From a virus (taxonomy: Duplodnaviria > Heunggongvirae > Uroviricota > Caudoviricetes), in the IMG/VR virus record IMGVR_UViG_2778261122_000001, positions 1 to 61,573 of that record: a stretch of DNA of 61,573 nucleotides; one strand, given 5' to 3'. Under the pieces are notes generated by a model. It had not been told where the DNA came from. It saw only the letters and a program-made list of their open reading frames with translations, and did not search any database. The position numbers and the translations under genes are program-made. This document shows, piece after piece, positions 3,435-38,536 of the stretch; the stretch's first letter is position 1; each line of letters opens with the position of its first letter.

Positions 3435-5992
3435 CGCCCACCTCCGGAGAACAGACCACCATCACGCATCTGCCCGGTCACAACATCCATTGCCGCCTTA
3501 CGGGCTACGTCATAAACAGCCTTCAGCGCCTGTGGCCCTATCTGACCGTTCGTGCCGTCGTTGTTAATCACCACATGGTTATTCTGCTCAAACGTCCCGG
3601 ACGCCTGCGACCGACTGTCCGCCATGCTGCCCGGTGTACCGACATAACCGCCGGTGGCATAGCCGCGCATCAGCCGGTAAAGATTCCCCACGCCAATCCG
3701 GCTGGTTGCCTCCTTCGTGAAGACAAATTCACCACGGTGAACAATCCCCGCTGGCTCATATTTGCCGCCGGTTCCCGTAAATCCTCCGGTCGCAAAATGG
3801 AGTTTCGCCGCAGCTGCCTGAATGGCTGTACCGCCTGACGCTGATGCGCCACCACTGGCAGCACCGCCAATGGCGCTGCCGATACTCCCGACAATCCCCA
3901 CCATTGCCTGCTTAAGCAGAATTTCTGTCATCATGGACAGCACGGAACGGGTGAAGCTGCGCCAGTTCTGTTCACTGCCGGTCAGCATCGCCGCCATATT
4001 CTGTGCAATACCATCAAAGGTCTGCGTGGCTGCACTTTTAACCTGCGACATACTGTCCGTGGCGCTCTCTTCCCACTCACTCCAGCCTGACCTGAGGCCT
4101 GCCATCCAGCTCCCGCGAAGCAGGTCTTCAGCCGCCCAGGTCTTTTTCTGCTCTGACATGACGTTATTCAGCGCCAGAGGATTATCGCCATACTGTTCCT
4201 TCAGGCGCTGTTCTGTGGCTTCCCGCGCTGCCTGCCGGTCAGTCAGCCCCCGGCTTTTCGCATCAATGGCGGCCCGTTTTGCCCGTTGCTGCTGTGCGAA
4301 TTTATCCGCCTGCTGCGCCAGCGCATTCAGGCGCTCCTGATACGTGACCTTATCGCCAAGTGCAGCCAGCTGGCGTTTGTACTCCAGCGTCTCATCTTTA
4401 TGCGCCAGCAGGGATTTCTCCTGTGCGGACAGCTGGCGACGTTGTGCCGCCTCCTCCAGTACCGCGAACTGACTCTCCGCCTTCCACAAATCCCGGCGCT
4501 GCTGGCTGATTTTCTCATTCGCTCCGGCATGCTTCTCCAGCGTCCGGAGTTCTGCCTGAAGCGTCAGCAGGGCAGCATGAGCACTGTCTTCCTGACGATC
4601 GCCCGCAGACACCTTCACGCCGGACTGTTTCGGCTTTTTCAGCGTCGCTTCATAGTCCTTTTTCGCCGCCGCCATCAGCGTGTTGTAATCTGCCTGCAGG
4701 ATTTTCCCGTCTTTCAGTGCCTTATTCAGTTCTTCCTGACGGGCGGTATATTTCTCCAGCGGCGTCTGCAGGCGTTCGTAAGCCTTCTGCGCCTCTTCGG
4801 TATATTTCAGCCGTGACGCTTCGGTATCGCTCTGCTGCTGCGCATTTTTGTCCTGTTGAGTCTGCTGCTCAGCCTTCTTTCTCGCGGCTTCAAGCGCAAG
4901 ACGGGCCTTTTCACGATCATCCCAGTAACGCGCCCGCGCTTCATCGTTAACAAAATAATCATCCTTGCGCAGACTCCAGATGTCGTCCGCTTTCTTAAAC
5001 GCAGCCTCTGCCTTAATCAGCATCTCCTGCGTGGTATCAGGACGACCAATATCCAGCACCGCATCCCACATGGATTTGAATGCCCGCGCTGTCCTGTCTG
5101 CCCAGGTCTCCAGCGTACCCATGTTCTCTTTCAGGCGGCGGGTCTGGTCATCAAACCCTTTCGTCGCGGCCTCGTTCGCCGCCTGCAATGCCCCGGCTTC
5201 ATCGCCGGAACGCTGCAACTGAGCAACATACGCAATCTGCTCCGCCGTCACGTTATGGAACTGACGTGCCATCGCTGTCAGTCCCGACGTCGGGTCTGTG
5301 GTCAGCTTCCCGAAGGCTTCAGCGACCTTGTCCACCTCCACGCCGGATGCAGAGGAGAAACGCGCCACACTCTGGCTGATCGCCTCAAACTGCTCACCAC
5401 CACGCACACCTGCATTCACCAGCGCCGTCAGTGACTCGCTGGTCTGGTTAAACGTCAGCCCTGCCGCCTGCCCGGCTCTGGACAGGACCAGCATACGATC
5501 TGCCGTCAGACCCGACTGATTGCCGGAAAGGACCAGCGTTTTGTTGAAATCGGACAGGGTTGAGTTGCCCTGATACCAGGCATACGCCAGCGCACCGGTC
5601 GCCACCGCCAGCGAGGTGGCCCCGACCATCGGCAGGGTGATCGCACCGGCAAGCCCTCTGAACATGGGGATCATCCCGCCGAAGGAGTCCTTCACCTGAC
5701 CACCCTGTTGCAGCAGGATCAGCCACGGACTTTGCCCGCCTGCAAGCTGCGTGGCCACGTCGGTGAACTGCGCAGGCAGCATACGCATGGCGGCTTTATA
5801 CTGCCCGACGGAAATCCCCGCTTTCTGTGCAGCCAGTGCCTGTCGGCTCAGCGACTGTTCAACGACTGCCGCTGTTTTTTTCGCATCACTTTCCGTACCG
5901 GAAAAATGACGCCTGACTCTGGCCATCTGCTCGTCAAATCTGGCCGCATCCAGACTTAAATCAACGACCAGATCGCCTACCGGTTCAGCCAT
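3431..5992 (-). CDS. H: Tail tape measure protein H
   Basis: 853 aa, same length as lambda gpH; long coiled-coil middle, Gly-rich C-terminus. Confidence 0.9.
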   Translation of the reverse strand: MAEPVGDLVVDLSLDAARFDEQMARVRRHFSGTESDAKKTAAVVEQSLSRQALAAQKAGISVGQYKAAMRMLPAQFTDVATQLAGGQSPWLILLQQGGQVKDSFGGMIPMFRGLAGAITLPMVGATSLAVATGALAYAWYQGNSTLSDFNKTLVLSGNQSGLTADRMLVLSRAGQAAGLTFNQTSESLTALVNAGVRGGEQFEAISQSVARFSSASGVEVDKVAEAFGKLTTDPTSGLTAMARQFHNVTAEQIAYVAQLQRSGDEAGALQAANEAATKGFDDQTRRLKENMGTLETWADRTARAFKSMWDAVLDIGRPDTTQEMLIKAEAAFKKADDIWSLRKDDYFVNDEARARYWDDREKARLALEAARKKAEQQTQQDKNAQQQSDTEASRLKYTEEAQKAYERLQTPLEKYTARQEELNKALKDGKILQADYNTLMAAAKKDYEATLKKPKQSGVKVSAGDRQEDSAHAALLTLQAELRTLEKHAGANEKISQQRRDLWKAESQFAVLEEAAQRRQLSAQEKSLLAHKDETLEYKRQLAALGDKVTYQERLNALAQQADKFAQQQRAKRAAIDAKSRGLTDRQAAREATEQRLKEQYGDNPLALNNVMSEQKKTWAAEDLLRGSWMAGLRSGWSEWEESATDSMSQVKSAATQTFDGIAQNMAAMLTGSEQNWRSFTRSVLSMMTEILLKQAMVGIVGSIGSAIGGAASGGASASGGTAIQAAAAKLHFATGGFTGTGGKYEPAGIVHRGEFVFTKEATSRIGVGNLYRLMRGYATGGYVGTPGSMADSRSQASGTFEQNNHVVINNDGTNGQIGPQALKAVYDVARKAAMDVVTGQMRDGGLFSGGGR

Positions 5993-6419
5993 ACCGGACT
6001 CCTCCTGCGATCCCTTCTGATACTGTCATCAGCATTACGTCATCCTCCGTCATGTCCGCCACATCCGGGGAAGCGGGGATAACTTCATTCCCGTCCGGGC
6101 CAAAACGAACGCCTCCGGCAAGCCCTGCCGCTTTCTGCATCAGCACATCATCTTCAGGCTCTTCGTCAGCCTCGCGCCGGTTCAGCAGACTGAAATCCAG
6201 CGGATGCATATCCGGATCGCTGAAAAACAGGCTGAGCACGGTGTACGTCAGCCCGGAAAAGTGCATATCCAGCAGAACATCATGAAAATAATGGGTACTG
6301 TAAAAGCGGTGCCAGTCGGCATACTCCGTGGATGACATCCCGGCAAGCATGGCGCGCCAGTCGGGTCGCCCCATCTCACGCGCCAGTTTCAGGGCAAAAC
6401 TCAGCTCACCGTCGAACAC
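5985..6419 (-). CDS. T: Tail assembly chaperone T segment, expressed as G-T fusion by -1 frameshift
   Basis: ORF opens at the slippery site in the -1 frame relative to G; overlaps H start. Confidence 0.8.
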   Translation of the reverse strand: MFDGELSFALKLAREMGRPDWRAMLAGMSSTEYADWHRFYSTHYFHDVLLDMHFSGLTYTVLSLFFSDPDMHPLDFSLLNRREADEEPEDDVLMQKAAGLAGGVRFGPDGNEVIPASPDVADMTEDDVMLMTVSEGIAGGVRYG

Positions 6420-6823
6420 TTTCCCGCAGAAACAGGCTCTGCGGGCCCGGCGTCCTCTGCCTGTTCAGGTGCATCATTCACAACAAACTCAGACATACCG
6501 GACAGACGCATTACCACATTTTCAGCCTGAGCAATTGCCTCTGTGGGCCAGGTGGTAAGCACTTCCTGCTCAATCTGTTTAACGGCTTCATTCATGGACG
6601 GCATCTTTGTCTTCTGCGGATGGCTATGCCACAGGGACATCGCCACCAGAAAAGCACCGGTTCTGACGAGATCTTCCACGCTCACCTGTCGATTGAGACT
6701 GGATCCCGCCTGTTCTGCCTGTCGTTTCAGCAGGGCGAGATGCTCAATACGCTGCAGGGCTGACAGTTCAGAAAGCGTGACGCTCACACCGTTATATTCA
6801 AATGATTCGGTTTTCAGGAACAT
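6401..6823 (-). CDS. G: Tail assembly chaperone G
   Basis: 140 aa, lambda gpG length; slippery site near 3' end. Confidence 0.9.
   Translation of the reverse strand: MFLKTESFEYNGVSVTLSELSALQRIEHLALLKRQAEQAGSSLNRQVSVEDLVRTGAFLVAMSLWHSHPQKTKMPSMNEAVKQIEQEVLTTWPTEAIAQAENVVMRLSGMSEFVVNDAPEQAEDAGPAEPVSAGKCSTVS
6419..6425 (-). other. Programmed -1 ribosomal frameshift slippery heptamer GGGAAAG (G to G-T)
   Basis: Plus strand reads ctttccc, i.e. G_GGA_AAG on the coding strand six codons before the G stop; T frame begins exactly here. Confidence 0.75.
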
Positions 6824-6838
6824 CGCTGACTCTCCGGA

Positions 6839-7579
6839 TTAACTGTCGGTGACGGTGATTTCTGCAACCGCAGCAAGTTCACCATTACCGGATACGACCG
6901 GAATGTTGACCTTGCCTGCAGCAACACCTTTCACGGTGATGGTCATACCACTGACCGACACGGTGGCTTTTGTTTTATCCGCAGACACCGCACGGAAGCT
7001 CTTGTCGGTTGCGCCTTCCGGCTGGAATGCCACGGTCAGCGTGGTGCTCTGCCCTTTCACCACCGAGGTGCTGGCAGGCGTCACGGTCATGCCGGTTGCC
7101 GCTGTTACCGTGCTGCGATCTTCTGCCATCGACGGACGTCCCACGTTGGTGACTTTCACCGTGCGGGTGATCACTTCCTTCGCCGTCACCGCCTTACCGA
7201 TACTGCTGACCCAGCCGCGGAACACATCGACCGTGCCGTTCGGGAAGCGGATTTTATAGGCACGGGTATCACCTTCATTAAACCACGCCAGCAGCGCCTG
7301 CTGCCCCTGCTCTCCGGGCATCCACGCCAGCGTGAAGCTGGTATCTCCGGCGGATTTCTGCCCCTGTCCGGTCGAGGTCCAGTCCGCATCTTCATCATCG
7401 AGATAACTGTCGTCATAGGACTCAGCGGTCAGTTCGCCGGGCGTCAGGTCTTTAACTTTTGCCAGACGCGACCAGTCATTGTCTGAAAGCGGGTTTGCAT
7501 AAGGGTCGCCGCTCCCGTTATAAACCCACAGGGTGGTCCCGGCCCCTTTCACCGGTGCCAGAGGATTTGGTGTTGGCAT
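6839..7579 (-). CDS. V: Major tail tube protein V
   Basis: Start trimmed to MPTPNP; matches remembered lambda gpV including C-terminal Ig-like domain. Confidence 0.9.
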
Positions 7580-7586
7580 ATCGTCC

Positions 7587-7982
7587 TCACATTTCATAGG
7601 TAATGACATAAGTCAGATCGGCTGAACTCCACAGGCCCGCATCATCGTCGCGCCGGTAGTCATAGCCACTGGCCACCATACTGGTGATCAAATCTGACAG
7701 TGCCGGGATATCGCTCATTACCGGATAAATCCGGGACTCCATCCACGAATCCAGCTCTGAATCCGGCACCTGAGCAGGCAGGAAAACTTCAATATGCAGC
7801 TCCGCCTGCCAGGTATCGCTGTCCAGCTCTTCGCCCGTGTATTCAGCGCCGGTGAGATAAACGGCAATTGCCGGAAAATCCGCCTCATCAAAAACAGCGG
7901 GGCGACCATCAAAAAGCGTCGCCCCGGTGTCATGCTTCTCCAGTGCATCCAGTACGGCTGCTCGGAGTTCAGTATGTTTCAT
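7587..7982 (-). CDS. U: Tail terminator protein U
   Basis: 131 aa, lambda gpU size and position. Confidence 0.9.
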
Positions 7983-32941: not shown

Positions 32942-33291
32942 TGGAGCCATACAGCCTCACACTCGATGAGGCCTGTCATTTTCTCAAGATATCCAGACCG
33001 ACTGCCATTAACTGGATACGCACAGGGCGTCTTCAGGCAACACGCAAAGATCCCACTAAGAATAAATCTCCTTACCTCACAACACGACAAGCCTGCATTG
33101 CGGCTCTTCAGTCTCCGCTGCATACTGTCCAGGTGAGCGCGGGTGATGGCATAACAGAGGAAAGAAAATGTCACTCTTCCGCAGAGGTGAAATATGGTAC
33201 GCCAGTTTCACATTGCCGAACGGTAAAAGATTTAAACAGTCTCTTGGAACAAAGGACAAAAGGCAGGCGACAGAACTCCATGACAAGCTAA
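32941..33291 (+). CDS. xis: Excisionase-like DNA-binding protein
   Basis: [36 protein letters not shown] pattern directly upstream of int; 3' extent uncertain. Confidence 0.45.
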
Positions 33292-34331
33292 AGGCTGAAG
33301 CATGGCGGGTCAGCAAACTTGGTGAAATACCTGATATAACGTTCGAGGAAGCGTGTGTCAGGTGGCTTGAAGAGAAAGCACATAAAAAATCACTGGACGA
33401 TGACAAAAGCCGGATCGGATTCTGGCTTCAACATTTCGCAGGAATGCAACTAAGAGACATTACTGAATCAAAAATTTATTCAGCAATGCAGAAAATGACG
33501 AACCGGCGTCATGAGGAAAACTGGAAACTCAGGGCAGAAGCATGCAGAAAAAAAGGGAAACCTGTTCCAGAATACACGCCAAAACCAGCGTCCGTTGCAA
33601 CGAAGGCTACGCATCTTTCATTTATAAAGGCCCTACTAAGAGCCGCAGAGCGTGAATGGAAAATGCTGGATAAGGCACCAATTATTAAAGTGCCTCAACC
33701 AAAGAATAAACGGATCCGCTGGCTGGAGCCCCATGAAGCACAAAGGCTGATTGATGAATGTCCGGAGCCATTAAAGTCTGTTGTTGAATTTGCACTGGCA
33801 ACAGGCTTAAGACGCTCGAACATCATCAACCTTGAATGGCAACAAATAGATATGCAGCGCCGGGTGGCATGGATAAACCCGGAAGAGAGTAAATCAAACC
33901 GCGCAATTGGCGTTGCGCTGAATGATACTGCATGTCGCGTATTGAAAAAACAAATCGGGAATCATCACCGTTGGGTATTTGTGTACAAGGAAAGCTGTAC
34001 CAAACCAGACGGAACGAAAGCGCCAACAGTAAGGAAGATGCGGTATGACGCAAACACAGCCTGGAAAGCGGCGCTGAGACGGGCTGGTATTGATGATTTC
34101 AGATTTCACGACTTGAGACACACCTGGGCAAGTTGGCTGGTTCAAGCCGGAGTCCCGTTGTCAGTGTTACAGGAAATGGGAGGCTGGGAGTCTATCGAAA
34201 TGGTTCGTCGATATGCTCACCTTGCACCTAATCACCTTACCGAACACGCACAGCAAATAGACTCGATCCTGAACCCATCGGTCCCAAATTTGTCCCAGTC
34301 AAAAAATAAGGAAGGTACTAATGATGTGTAA
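33168..34331 (+). CDS. int: Tyrosine integrase, P22 Int type (thrW-targeting)
   Basis: [33 protein letters not shown] matches remembered P22 Int; C-terminal R...HxxR...Y catalytic pattern. Confidence 0.9.
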
Positions 34332-34345
34332 CTTATTGATTTAAA

Positions 34346-34392
34346 TGGTGCCGATAATAGGAGTCGAACCTACGACCTTCGCATTACGAATC
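34346..34392 (-). other. Partial tRNA-Thr(CGU) 3' end, 47 nt: attachment-site core between the two prophages
   Basis: Reverse complement GATTCGTAATGCGAAGGTCGTAGGTTCGACTCCTATTATCGGCACCA equals the 3' portion of E. coli thrW from the anticodon loop to CCA; 5' half absent. Confidence 0.8.
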
Positions 34393-34727
34393 TGTAGCAC
34401 CAATCATAACTATCTGTTTTAGCAAGCATTAACCGCATTCACTAACCTATAGTTGATGGCACAAACAGAAAGTTGATGCATGATGTTGCCATGTGTATGT
34501 CACAAATACGGCACAACGATCTTCAAACATGTAGCCACACATCCACAGAAGAGCACAAAGCCTTGCAATCCAGTGCAAAGCTTTGTGTGTTTAAATTTTG
34601 TCTAAGCATTCTAGTGAAAACATAGTAAAATCAGTAACGGCTGGAAATCATTCAATACTCGCACTATCGAAAGTTAACCAGCCAGCCGCAGTATCCTATC
34701 ATGACAAGTTACTGCGGCTTTTTATAT

Positions 34728-35024
34728 TTAACGGATCAACAGCCAGACCAGCAGACACACCACCACTGGCACAGCAAAATCCAACAAACTTCCCACATCC
34801 CACACGCGTGGATCAAAACCGCCCCACCACGGCATATTCATACGCTTGCCATGCCCGAACATTTCTATCCAGCGATATTCTGCCTGGGTGTGTTCTCGGG
34901 ATATAAAAAACACACACCCTATTACAGCCCCAGTTATCGGATCATTAAATAAACTCAAAAACAGAAACTGTAGCGATAATGATATTAGCACATGAATGAA
35001 ATGAGATATGTCCATACTTACCAA
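34728..35024 (-). CDS. Hypothetical small membrane protein downstream of tailspike
   Basis: 98-aa ORF with about three hydrophobic segments. Confidence 0.35.
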
Positions 35025-36676
35025 CTCAAAAGAATATTTACATCACCTACGCTAATAGGATTTGGAGTGACATTTTGAAATGTTACCCTGACGATATTAT
35101 CGGAAACAGCAATAGCATCTGAAATTATACCTATTGGGAGATCATTCAACACTGTCATTTGTAGAGGAACTTCATTAGATATGATATATCCGGTCAATGT
35201 TCTTTGCATTGAGAACCTGCCACTTGCTGAAATCGTGCCAACATTCAACGTTGATTTTACTTTCTTTCCTGAATATGTAACACCATTCAAATCTATATGT
35301 GAGTTATTTATTAATGTCAACGCAGAATATCCTGAAAAATCACTATTAGCCCCGGCCTGCCTTACTACAGAGAATTTATCAGCTCGTATTGCAAAGTCAC
35401 CAGTTGCTTCCGATGCATTAATGTTATTGGTAACAACAACACCTCCATCAACACAGTTAATAGCATATGTTGCATTTCCTTTTATCGTTATGTTTCTTAA
35501 ACTTAAATAAGATGCAAACTGGCATGTGGCAAAAGCAATTGCTCCATCTGATAGATACCCATCTGAAAATTCAACAGACGAAGAATACCTTGATCCTATA
35601 CACGATTGAGTTCTCGGTTTAAAAATAGATCCGCCTTTAATATAACAATCCGCCGCATGCTCAACCTTAAGAGAGTCTTCCCCTGAATTGTAAGAAGTGA
35701 ATTCTGTGCCCCTCACGCTTGCACTGTACACACATTCAAGGGAAATATTAGCATTTGATATATGAACCCCATTAACCCCAAACTGAGATCCAGAGCCAGA
35801 AACAAGAACTCCACAAACAGAGCCTCCATTTACAATCAAATTGTTTGCATCCCAAACTACGCAACTACCACATTGTGAATCAGGGTAGTATCCACCTCCG
35901 ATAATGAGTCCGTAATCACCATCTGTTTCAACAGCAACATTTTTTATGCTGTATATATTTGATCTAAATTGTATTCCTTTTGTTGTTTTTATTATGGAAT
36001 TTATTGGTTTTGCCACAACCCCGTTAACTGGGCCTGAAATTATACCATTGTGACTCATATCCAATGTTAAAACATTTCCATCCTTGGAAATTATCATCGC
36101 TCCACATGAAATGTCTCTCCTGCCAGAAAGTATACAATATTTACCAACATGAAAATTATCTGCATTCTGAACAGAAACTTTAAATATACCAGTCAACACA
36201 TCATAAGAAACATCATATACATTAACAGGACTATAATCCACACCCAATATATTCAGAGGAATATTATCAAACTCATCATAATGTGAATAACCATCAGGAA
36301 TGTGAATATACTGCCCGTATTCTATCTGTGATCTAAGCTGATCGGGATCGTACTTCAGCACATTAGGAAAATAGAACTGCTGTGATCCATATGCATCGTA
36401 CACAGCCATAGAATGCCCTTGTACAGTAACGAACTTAGCAATCTGTCCGTTATATACTGGATACCCTGCGGCATTGATGACGATTGGCTGTGCAACAGGA
36501 ACGTGAGAACCATCTTCGTTTTCTACATAAACCTGAATCTGGTTTTCTGGATTTACCGGGTCAGTATCAATTTTACCGATATAAATTTTGCCATTGGCTA
36601 CGGCTTTAAAAGAACGCGCCATAGTGAAGAGTTGCGATGGCATCGATACGATCACATTGGCTGTAATGTCTGTCAT
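35018..36676 (-). CDS. Tailspike protein with P22 gp9-type N-terminal head-binding domain
   Basis: First ~110 aa ([43 protein letters not shown]) match remembered P22 gp9; remainder divergent. Confidence 0.85.
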
Positions 36677-36876: not shown

Positions 36877-37755
36877 TTAAAGTTTAATTGAGTGGCACGC
36901 TCTATCACGTATCGCTGCGAATGAAGCTATCTCTTTAAGTGCCCAGCTTTGCTCAGCCATTAAATGGCGAAGTGCTTTTAGTTCAGCTCTTACTGCTGAA
37001 ACGTCATACCCCGCTTTTGTCAGAATATTGATTAGTTTATACGCCGGGCTGCATTCAACGAGTGCGCTTCGGTCAAGAGCAACAGTATCACCGCATTGCT
37101 GCCTGATAATGGCGTAAGGTGCATTTTCAGCAAACCATGAAATCGGGAAGTTAATATCCAGTTTTGGCGCTGGTAACTCTTCTTGTTTGCCGATGAACTC
37201 GCCTTCAAGCACTACCCTGTGGATGTACTCTACGGCCAGCGGGATTTGTTCAATTGAAAGTTCATCAATGCTGTCAATACCAAAACGCTGATGAACCATA
37301 TTGTATGCATCGTCATAGCGAAGTCCTTTCTTTCCTACCAGCATGTTTACTGCATCGCGTAGCGGTGTTCTTTCCTCAACAGTGGTTTTCTTTCCTTTTA
37401 CATACTCGTCATGTTTGCGAATTGAAGGCAGAACTTCTGCTGTTACCCACTTGCGGAATTTGTGCGGGACTGAACCTTTATTGACTGCATCGCGGCAGCG
37501 CAGAACCAATGTATACATACCTGATTCGCTCACAATGCTTATATTCTGCTCACCACCAAGGGTGTAACTTAAAGTTACTCCCTTTTCATCGTCATCAAGT
37601 GCAGTAAGCGCCTTGCGTGAGTTAGTCAAAGCTAAAGCATCACAAACATCTTTAGCTACAAACCACGGCTCGCCGCACTTGTTAATGACGCGAATTTCAC
37701 TGTCGCCAAATTTGAAGATGGTGAAATCGTTTTGTGCCTTTGCTATACTTTTCAT
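36877..37755 (-). CDS. ant: Antirepressor Ant
   Basis: 292 aa, antirepressor-like N-terminal domain; arc-ant-tailspike order as in P22. Confidence 0.8.
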
Positions 37756-37817: not shown

Positions 37818-38042
37818 TCAACTTTTCACTTCTTTAAAGTGCCTACCTTCTACAGTTGCTCTGAGATAAAAATTCTTATCTTTACCGTTTAGTGCTTCCC
37901 AAGCATCAACAATGCACTTATTACAGATGTGGACTTCTCGATAACCAATAGCTTTCCTGTCAATATTAGTGAACATAACAGTTTCTTTATCTGTCAATGT
38001 GGATGCATGACAGAAGTCGCAATCTATATAAGATACCTTCAT
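37818..38042 (-). CDS. Hypothetical Cys-rich protein inserted between arc and ant
   Basis: 74 aa with CDFC...CNKC spacing. Confidence 0.35.
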   Translation of the reverse strand: MKVSYIDCDFCHASTLTDKETVMFTNIDRKAIGYREVHICNKCIVDAWEALNGKDKNFYLRATVEGRHFKEVKS

Positions 38043-38197
38043 ACCGTTATCCCCTCTCTCTTCAGGCTGTCCATCACTCGCTTGTAAATCTCAGAGTTAA
38101 CAGATCGCCCGTTCTCTTCCGCCACCTTACGCACCAAATCCAATACTTCTTTAGGCCACCGCAAATTGAACTGCGGCATTTTGCTCATTCCTTTCAT
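38039..38197 (-). CDS. arc: Arc repressor
   Basis: Start trimmed to MKGMSKMPQFNLRWPKEVLDLVRKVAEENGRSVNSEIYKRVM; matches P22 Arc, 52 aa. Confidence 0.9.
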   Translation of the reverse strand: MKGMSKMPQFNLRWPKEVLDLVRKVAEENGRSVNSEIYKRVMDSLKREGITV

Positions 38198-38287
38198 ATT
38201 CACCTCACAATATAGGTCCACCGTGGACCTATTGAGAATATAGTAGAGTGCTTCTATCATGTCAATACACTAACTTGGGGTGATGGC

Positions 38288-38536
38288 ATGGCTAGAGACG
38301 ATCCGCACTTTAACTTCCGTATGCCTTTGGAAGTAAGAGAAAAATTGAAATTAAGAGCAGAGGCTAACGGAAGGTCAATGAACTCTGAGTTATTACAAAT
38401 CGTTCAGGATGCTCTCTCAAAGCCATCACCGATTGCAGGCTATCGAGACGAAGCTGAACGCTTGGCTGATCAGCAAGCAGAAATTGTTAAGAAGATGGTG
38501 TTTGAAACCCTGAAAAAAATGTACGAGACCAGATAG
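38288..38536 (+). CDS. mnt: Mnt repressor
   Basis: MARDDPHFNFRMPLEVREKLKLRAEANGRSMNSELLQIVQDALSKPSP matches P22 Mnt; divergent from arc. Confidence 0.9.
   Translation: MARDDPHFNFRMPLEVREKLKLRAEANGRSMNSELLQIVQDALSKPSPIAGYRDEAERLADQQAEIVKKMVFETLKKMYETR

Follow-up and report, generated by a model that had tools for sequence, protein, structure and literature searches.

The slot beside phage receptor-binding genes and the attachment site (att) is a classical home of exclusion and conversion genes, among them cor, llp, gtrABC and oac, and HK97 carries the moron gp15 in its tail operon. GtrABC of P22 and Oac/OafA of Sf6 and Sf101 are encoded in the same genomic position, between the tailspike gene and att or the integrase gene (int). 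Here we analyze a small gene that occupies this position in a stretch of 61,573 nucleotides (nt), positions 1 to 61,573 of the IMG/VR virus record IMGVR_UViG_2778261122_000001 (Caudoviricetes), hereafter the window. A first-pass annotation, made from the sequence alone, had pointed to a small open reading frame (ORF) with about three hydrophobic segments at the place where P22 has gtrABC, and had suggested a remnant or a compact surface-modification or exclusion gene. The membrane-protein description is borne out by the hydropathy profile and by three helices in an AlphaFold2 model, and the position between tailspike and att is confirmed by the ORF map of the window and the annotation of P22. 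We show that the ORF is a genuine, selected gene for a 95-residue, three-helix integral membrane protein belonging to a large uncharacterized family, phrog_1443, and that the family occurs in phages of all three tail types as a dispensable accessory, its gene usually standing directly after the receptor-binding gene at the end of the late operon. An exclusion-type role at the cytoplasmic membrane is a reasonable guess, to which we give a probability of roughly 30%.

The resemblance to the conversion genes of this slot is positional. The P22 gtr operon is a cassette of three products (120, 310 and 486 amino acids [aa]) on the strand opposite gene 9, transcribed convergently to it from its own promoter and thereby expressed from the prophage, and joins a GtrA-like flippase of four transmembrane (TM) helices (PF04138) to a GT2-type GtrB and to GtrC. 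The window instead has a single 95-aa product encoded in the same direction as the tailspike gene and 2 nt from it, with no match in Pfam and no partner genes between tailspike and att. Oac and OafA are members of acyltransferase_3, exceed 300 aa and have about 10 TM helices, whereas the window protein has 95 aa, three helices and no Pfam match; in phage vB_EcoP-611R6 an OafA acetylase gene and the small gene lie side by side. A gene that stands in this slot in Kapi1, 'hyp24', was tested for a role in O-antigen modification in the study of that phage, with a negative outcome (PMC8787464). That result is irrelevant to phrog_1443, because hyp24 is an unrelated 34-aa ORF and Kapi1 lacks the family.

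Among exclusion genes, cor (phi80, N15, HK022 and T1) and llp (T5) are likewise small accessory genes beside a receptor-binding gene. Their products are lipoproteins of the outer membrane, which block a single receptor, FhuA, and vary along with the receptor-binding protein; unlike them, phrog_1443 is predicted to be a polytopic inner-membrane protein, and it is found behind many unrelated receptor-binding proteins. An analogy of the 'works like' kind can be drawn to HK97 gp15, P22 SieA and T4 Imm, small accessory proteins of the inner membrane that act at a post-adsorption step, and gp15 sits in a tail operon much as the window gene sits in a late operon. There is no homology between the window protein and these three, with no match to Pfam models, including the SIEA model that a neighboring gene in one of the compared loci matches, or to PADLOC models, and phrog_1443 is far more conserved and widespread than they are and occurs in multiple copies per genome. 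DicB, which blocks inner-membrane phage receptors, is a functional analog (PMC6832061). Class I holins (lambda S105, P22 gp13) resemble the window protein in size (about 100 aa), in their three membrane helices and in late expression, but they belong to the lysis cassette and have a charged C-terminal domain, whereas the window gene lies at the opposite end of the late region and its product ends in a C-terminal tail of 1–6 residues.

A selected gene of a large uncharacterized family

The ORF on the minus strand at 34728–35024 is present as first annotated, with 98 aa and a TTG start, but its start codon is probably wrong. The TTG at 35024 overlaps the last two sense codons of the tailspike gene and would add three residues; judged by the sequence, the likely start is the ATG at 35015–35013, since alignments of homologs and the public gene calls for the identical protein all begin there. 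The resulting gene (phrog_1443/'Ybl63'; minus strand, 34728–35015) encodes 95 aa beginning MDISHFIH and stops at a TAA (34728–34730). Two nucleotides separate its ATG from the TAA of the tailspike gene (35018–35020), a gap so short that co-transcription of the two genes, and translational coupling of the small gene to the tailspike gene, are almost certain.

The ORF matches the phrog_1443 profile over its full length (E = 3.1e-44; residues 4–98 of the 98-aa form against positions 1–95 of 97), and on profile comparisons we assign the protein to phrog_1443 and to nothing else. It has no match in Pfam at E ≤ 1 and none in NCBIfam, searches of Protein Data Bank sequences with profiles of close and distant members returned nothing at E ≤ 10, and there is no similarity to P22 GtrA (BLASTP E = 6.7). 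When 56 diverse family members were searched against Pfam, the scattered weak matches obtained (PhoR, VirB3, cytochrome b561 and holin) were treated as noise; one of these members matched Phage_holin_8 weakly (E = 0.0036). Rfam had nothing in the interval between the ORF and att.

A search of 5.8 billion proteins recovered 555 clusters of homologs at 90% identity, nearly all of 95–100 aa and all labeled 'hypothetical'. An exhaustive search with a profile against 1.8 billion representatives yielded 438 clusters at 50% identity, every one of them single-domain. Homologs of about 95–100 aa occur in Gamma-, Beta-, Alpha- and Deltaproteobacteria. The name 'Ybl63' is attached to some members, some of them from E. 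coli, in a few UniProt entries, and the member in coliphage 21 is annotated as 'putative membrane protein' CPT_21_24. Between E. coli alleles the ratio of nonsynonymous to synonymous substitution rates (dN/dS) is 0.15–0.34; between genera the synonymous sites are saturated and the proteins are still about 55% identical. The exact 95-aa protein is recorded in 196 blocks of public assemblies, and in the places shown it stands behind the same 552-aa tailspike in P22-like prophages with differing integrases and chromosomal flanks. An allele at 94% identity has the same arrangement as in the window, behind the tailspike. The identical pair of tailspike gene and small ORF is also common in draft assemblies.

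Occurrence behind receptor-binding genes

In 145 of 159 loci, a co-directional ORF ends no more than 400 nt upstream of the start of the gene, and 90 of these ORFs end within 30 nt of it. The upstream neighbor is a P22-like tailspike gene in the window, in JEP4, a P22-like coliphage in which the gene overlaps the tailspike stop codon, and in loci L078–L081. In vB_EcoP-611R6 (L076, 1905–3788) the order is tailspike, OafA-type O-acetylase, a 38-aa remnant annotated 'tail fiber protein', the small gene and integrase, and the 38-aa remnant suggests that the small gene came from a lambda-like side-fiber module. Lambda-like E. coli phages have such a module: J, a lom-like gene, a side fiber (about 790 aa), an acidic protein of 89–93 aa (phrog_1361), a second fiber protein and then the gene, with a shorter form in phage 21 (side tail fiber, 92-aa protein, gene).

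The same placement recurs well beyond these coliphages. In a P2/HP1-like myovirus prophage of Leclercia the gene starts at the base after a 939-aa fiber gene with a Peptidase_S74 domain; in Desulfovibrio it stands behind a 935-aa S74 spike, and in Chelativorans behind a ConA-like tail protein. In Comamonas, gpJ (2520 aa) is followed by a 72-aa ORF, the gene, and holin-, endolysin- and Rz-like ORFs. Bona fide Aeromonas phage members (E = 1e-19 to 1e-26) are found in ACP1, 4_4512 and 62AhydR11PP: in the 236-kb jumbo phage ACP1 the gene is just upstream of the tailspike gene, in the podophage 4_4512 it lies within the structural operon, and in 62AhydR11PP it is near a convergent tailspike gene.

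The family is dispensable. It is absent from P22 and from Kapi1, whose backbone is closest to that of the window phage, and only 56 of 50,697 phage records carry it. Clustering the neighbors in 71 loci revealed no universal partner gene across contexts. The sole semi-conserved neighbor is a small, acidic, soluble protein of 72–93 aa (phrog_1361/phrog_18574) in E. coli and some Comamonas phages, which is absent from the window; it is often encoded between the fiber gene and the membrane-protein gene (L001, 3710–3988; L087, 3995–4276; L024, 5432–5998; L002, 7766–7984). Two further observations concern individual loci. In the Comamonas testosteroni prophage (L002, 8300–10033), the ORFs after the gene are two multi-TM ORFs, a 183-aa endolysin-like ORF and a 171-aa Rz-like ORF; these post-tail ORFs resemble a lysis cassette, and none matched NCBIfam. 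In phage 21 (L001, OL657228), a complete sitABCD operon for an iron/manganese ABC transporter lies directly after the homolog on the opposite strand (4386–7835), a cargo island in the same fiber-to-att slot.

Solitary chromosomal copies

The gene is also found outside phage settings. Five Aeromonas species have a syntenic solitary copy between a pirin gene and the gene for a PA4780-family RIO1-like kinase (L003, L007, L010, L012 and L018), with two genes for MsbB/LpxM-type lipid A acyltransferases just beyond it. We take this neighborhood as a weak functional hint, because the neighbors are convergently transcribed and do not form an operon; the regions upstream of the Aeromonas chromosomal copies contain no recognizable regulatory box. 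In sphingomonads and other metagenome-assembled genomes (L066, L067 and L069), the gene overlaps or abuts the stop codon of ligA, which encodes the NAD-dependent DNA ligase. Translational coupling to an upstream gene is seen in this non-phage context too.

Predicted fold and topology

The window protein has three hydrophobic stretches, with Kyte–Doolittle maxima at about residues 6–23, 26–39 and 76–94, and an AlphaFold2 model built from a 96-sequence alignment has helices at residues 4–23, 26–52 and 74–94 (mean predicted local distance difference test [pLDDT] 93.9; predicted template-modeling score [pTM] 0.78). Helix 1 (minus strand, 34947–35006) carries an invariant His8 and a conserved face of small and polar residues, Ala9, Gln16 and Gly20, the last of which is Leu20 in the window allele. 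Helix 2 (minus strand, 34860–34940) contains a G29xxxG33-C34 packing motif and the invariant pair Arg40-Glu41, and continues as an amphipathic extension. The most conserved core, codons 40–72 (minus strand, 34800–34898), is near-identical in DNA among E. coli alleles. Helix 3 (minus strand, 34734–34796) has conserved Ser76, Asp79, Pro83 and Cys87 and is followed by a short basic C-terminal tail.

Close members share a common core containing MPWWGGFD, then S..D...P...C. His8, Arg40, Glu41 and Trp72 are invariant even among the most distant members, and Gln44, Ala45, Glu46 and Pro83 are conserved in at least 90% across distant members; all of these residues are present in the window protein. Its allele has H5, L20, P26 and S39 where at least 90% of close members have P, G, W and A, respectively.

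Over 231 members, the mean number of lysine and arginine residues is 0.65 at the N-terminus, 0.13 in the turn between helices 1 and 2, 5.6 in the loop at residues 40–75 and 0.77 in the C-terminal tail. By the positive-inside rule, this distribution leads us to propose, with moderate confidence, a cytoplasmic-membrane protein with its N-terminus inside and its C-terminus outside, and with the Arg- and Trp-rich loop at residues 40–75 on the cytoplasmic face. Counting from the tight turn between helices 1 and 2, His8 and Arg40/Glu41 lie at the same depth, and Asp79 is five residues into helix 3. These residues would therefore cluster one to two helical turns deep in the membrane, on the same side as the N-terminus and long loop, an arrangement in which we have moderate confidence and which was deduced from helix positions.

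A lipobox-like sequence, V-I-G-C, is present at residues 31–34 (about 34914–34925); gamma- and betaproteobacterial members have the general form V/I-x-G-C, which in most of them reads I-A-G-C; the depositors of phage 21 reported a SignalP signal. We judged lipoprotein processing at Cys34 unlikely, because the n-region is acidic (MD...), the invariant His8 and the conserved Gln16 would be cleaved off, the cysteine is absent in distant members, and the AlphaFold2 model runs one helix, residues 26–52, through the site. The motif is probably fortuitous, and would explain the 'lipoprotein' and signal-peptide labels of some relatives.

Mosaicism around a conserved core

The gene has a composite history within E. 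coli phages. Positions 34625–34898, which comprise the C-terminal 57 codons and about 100 nt downstream, are about 92% identical in DNA to lambda-like phages. DNA of the 3' two-thirds of the gene with its downstream flank is present in 3807 of 5426 complete E. coli genomes (median 2 and maximum 9 places per genome), and the core DNA is 92–95% identical among E. coli phages that are otherwise mosaic. The N-terminal 39 codons have essentially no match in the same 5426 genomes. Their G+C content is 33%, as compared with 53% in the rest of the ORF and 35% in the C-terminal 500 nt of the spike gene, which places the joint near 34898.

In an alignment of five alleles, two types of N-terminal block and two types of C-terminal block occur in all combinations around a near-identical core, and the rare low-G+C N-terminal third is linked to one particular tailspike. 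Because the allele blocks reassort around the core and the G+C content jumps within the ORF, the core appears to act as a crossover zone, a downstream homology arm for swaps of receptor-binding cassettes between phages. By the same sequence pattern, the donor of the window tailspike would also have had a homolog of the gene directly behind its spike.

Possible functions

We favor, at the probability of roughly 30% given above, a protective, exclusion-type accessory protein at the cytoplasmic membrane. In this model the protein would bind a conserved inner-membrane lipid or protein at the cytoplasmic leaflet, the binding would interfere with a post-adsorption step of other phages, for example passage of the genome across the inner membrane, and the lysogen or already infected cell would thereby be protected. 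Such a role is suggested by the slot itself, since it is the classical home of exclusion and conversion genes, and by the gene being dispensable and patchy among close relatives. It is also consistent with a protein that needs no phage partner, and with the retention of solitary copies by cells, which fits a cell-useful function.

A number of observations weigh against exclusion. Family DNA is found in a median of 2 places in an E. coli genome and in as many as 9, so lambdoid phages that carry the gene are not kept from accumulating; this speaks against broad or homotypic exclusion. There is no space for the gene to have a promoter of its own, promoter-like sites for independent expression occur at chance level only, and its location in late operons, including that of a 236-kb jumbo phage, and in the middle of a structural operon agrees at least equally well with a lytic role. 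Exclusion proteins do not usually have a core conserved to anything like this degree, and the conservation hints at catalysis or ligand binding. The PADLOC defense models gave no match, and a literature survey covering phrog_1443, Ybl63, SEED FIG00639861, phage 21 and exclusion genes near tail-fiber genes found nothing on the phrog_1443 family. As to topology, the positive-inside rule is the sole support for the orientation proposed here, and the TMHMM prediction of the phage 21 depositors differs from it (two TM domains, with both termini inside).

The late position of the gene makes it possible, though we hold this tentatively, that the protein is instead a lytic-cycle helper at the inner membrane, acting in holin triggering and lysis timing or in membrane conditioning before release, and not in conversion or defense. 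Tight coupling to late structural genes (gaps of -4 to 36 nt in most phage loci) would be expected of such a helper, as would an intact copy under purifying selection in each prophage, however many places per genome are occupied. Its presence in a jumbo phage, in a podophage structural operon and directly before the holin-, endolysin- and Rz-like ORFs of Comamonas is compatible with a late role, and its size and three-helix layout are those of class I holins such as lambda S and P22 gp13. Close relatives nevertheless do without the gene, solitary copies are kept in non-phage chromosomal settings, and in E. coli phages the gene is far from the lysis cassette. The protein itself is unlike holins in its very short C-terminal tail, its long conserved loop and its buried invariant charges, and the single weak holin match among the 56 diverse members was taken as noise.

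The conserved polar residues raise a different explanation, which we consider unlikely: a compact envelope-modifying enzyme or a lipid- or ion-binding protein that would use a His8/Arg40-Glu41/Asp79 site to change the cell surface or membrane. Undecaprenyl-phosphate-linked sugars, lipid A-core, an anionic phospholipid or a metal ion are the proposed targets. The gene does occupy the gtrABC/oac slot and requires no conserved partner gene; its charged and aromatic residues hardly vary in four proteobacterial classes, as for catalysis or specific ligand binding; and the Aeromonas chromosomal copy is beside the two lipid A acyltransferase genes. Those neighbors are convergent, however, and no similarity of sequence or fold links the family to a known transferase, phosphatase, flippase or transporter. 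Moreover, conversion genes normally track the receptor, whereas this family is constant whatever the receptor-binding protein and the surface chemistry of the host. To our knowledge, every characterized glycan- or lipid-modifying enzyme is larger than 95 residues. The surface-modification role suggested by the first-pass annotation has gained no positive support. It is quite improbable, in our estimate, that the family represents an unrecognized class of minimal three-helix membrane enzymes or ligand binders, with a buried His/Arg-Glu/Asp site and a Trp- and Arg-rich interfacial loop. If it did, its members would either modify an intermediate universal to inner membranes or inactivate abortive-infection systems based in the membrane, a new mechanism that is neither receptor masking nor a block to DNA entry.

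At the level of DNA, the segment could be a recombination linker flanking a variable receptor-binding cassette, with the protein mattering little, a reading we find very hard to credit. The 92–95% identity of the core among mosaic phages, its presence in 70% of complete E. coli genomes, the reassortment of allele blocks around it and the G+C jump inside the ORF are what a linker would produce. As a sole explanation it is largely refuted by the selection on the protein seen in dN/dS: the protein is conserved despite synonymous saturation (Leclercia, Comamonas, Aeromonas and the alphaproteobacteria), frame and length are kept across hundreds of clusters, and solitary chromosomal copies have no neighboring fiber gene. 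A chance ORF or a decayed remnant of P22 gtrABC, for which the position between tailspike and att is the only argument, can be dismissed given the full-length family match, hundreds of homolog clusters, purifying selection, no similarity to GtrA or to any Pfam family, and an orientation opposite to that of the P22 gtr operon.

Broader significance

The window gene is a typical member of its family and ordinary for the window, and we regard it as a moderately interesting lead: the family is ubiquitous and strongly conserved, it is linked to receptor-binding genes in different types of phage, and curated domain and structure databases lack it. It is among the commonest accessory families of E. 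coli prophages, with its DNA in about 70% of complete genomes and often in several copies, and yet Pfam has no entry for it, no structure, solved or similar, is available, and no function has been published. An assigned function would cover thousands of 'hypothetical proteins'. The near-constant place beside the receptor-binding gene in podo-, sipho- and myoviruses, and in four proteobacterial classes, suggests that host recognition and an activity in the inner membrane are connected in a general way. Furthermore, the conserved core marks the downstream boundary of tail-fiber and tailspike cassette exchange, which is useful for host-range prediction and engineering.

Genomic context of the window gene

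The window consists of two tandem prophages. The first, a lambda-like siphovirus (1 to about 34.3 kb), is 96% identical to PhiR47_2 and its relatives (PhiR11_1); the second, a P22-like podovirus (about 34.7–61.5 kb), has a backbone 96% identical to Kapi1 and CUS-3. An integrase gene (plus strand, 33168–34331) lies next to an attP-like region of the thrW type (34332–34691, no strand assigned) that is 95% identical to the attP regions of HK75, mEpX2 and HK446. The junction contains no tRNA gene, and judging from the sequence a complete thrW-type attP at 34332–34691 would fit a junction of two prophages that use the same att site. The integrase most likely belongs to the lambda-like prophage and not to the P22-like one. 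We treat the attP-like junction as context and not as part of the function of the small gene.

The small gene is the last gene of the P22-like prophage, and hairpins follow it. A strong RNA hairpin, GCCGCAGUA...UACUGCGGC, begins 9 nt after its stop codon (minus strand, 34684–34719; z = -4.4), has no clear U-run and follows the gene in 18 other loci. A terminator-like hairpin with a 14-bp stem, CACAAAGC...GCUUUGUG, lies farther on (minus strand, 34554–34587) and recurs a few tens of bases 3' of the gene in JEP4, 611R6 and the P0001 contig.

The tailspike gene (minus strand, 35018–36676) encodes 552 aa with a P22-type Head_binding domain (PF09008, E = 1.3e-66) and matches tailspike PHROGs, the best of which is the family 'tailspike with colanic acid degradation activity'. 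Its receptor-binding part has no counterpart in the 5426 complete E. coli genomes except for one partial match at 66% identity. Upstream of the tailspike gene, a 292-aa gene of the Bro-N/P22 antirepressor type (36877–37755) and small Arc/Mnt-like ORFs (38039–38536) together form what appears to be a P22 immI-like region, as indicated by an identical layout in L079–L081.

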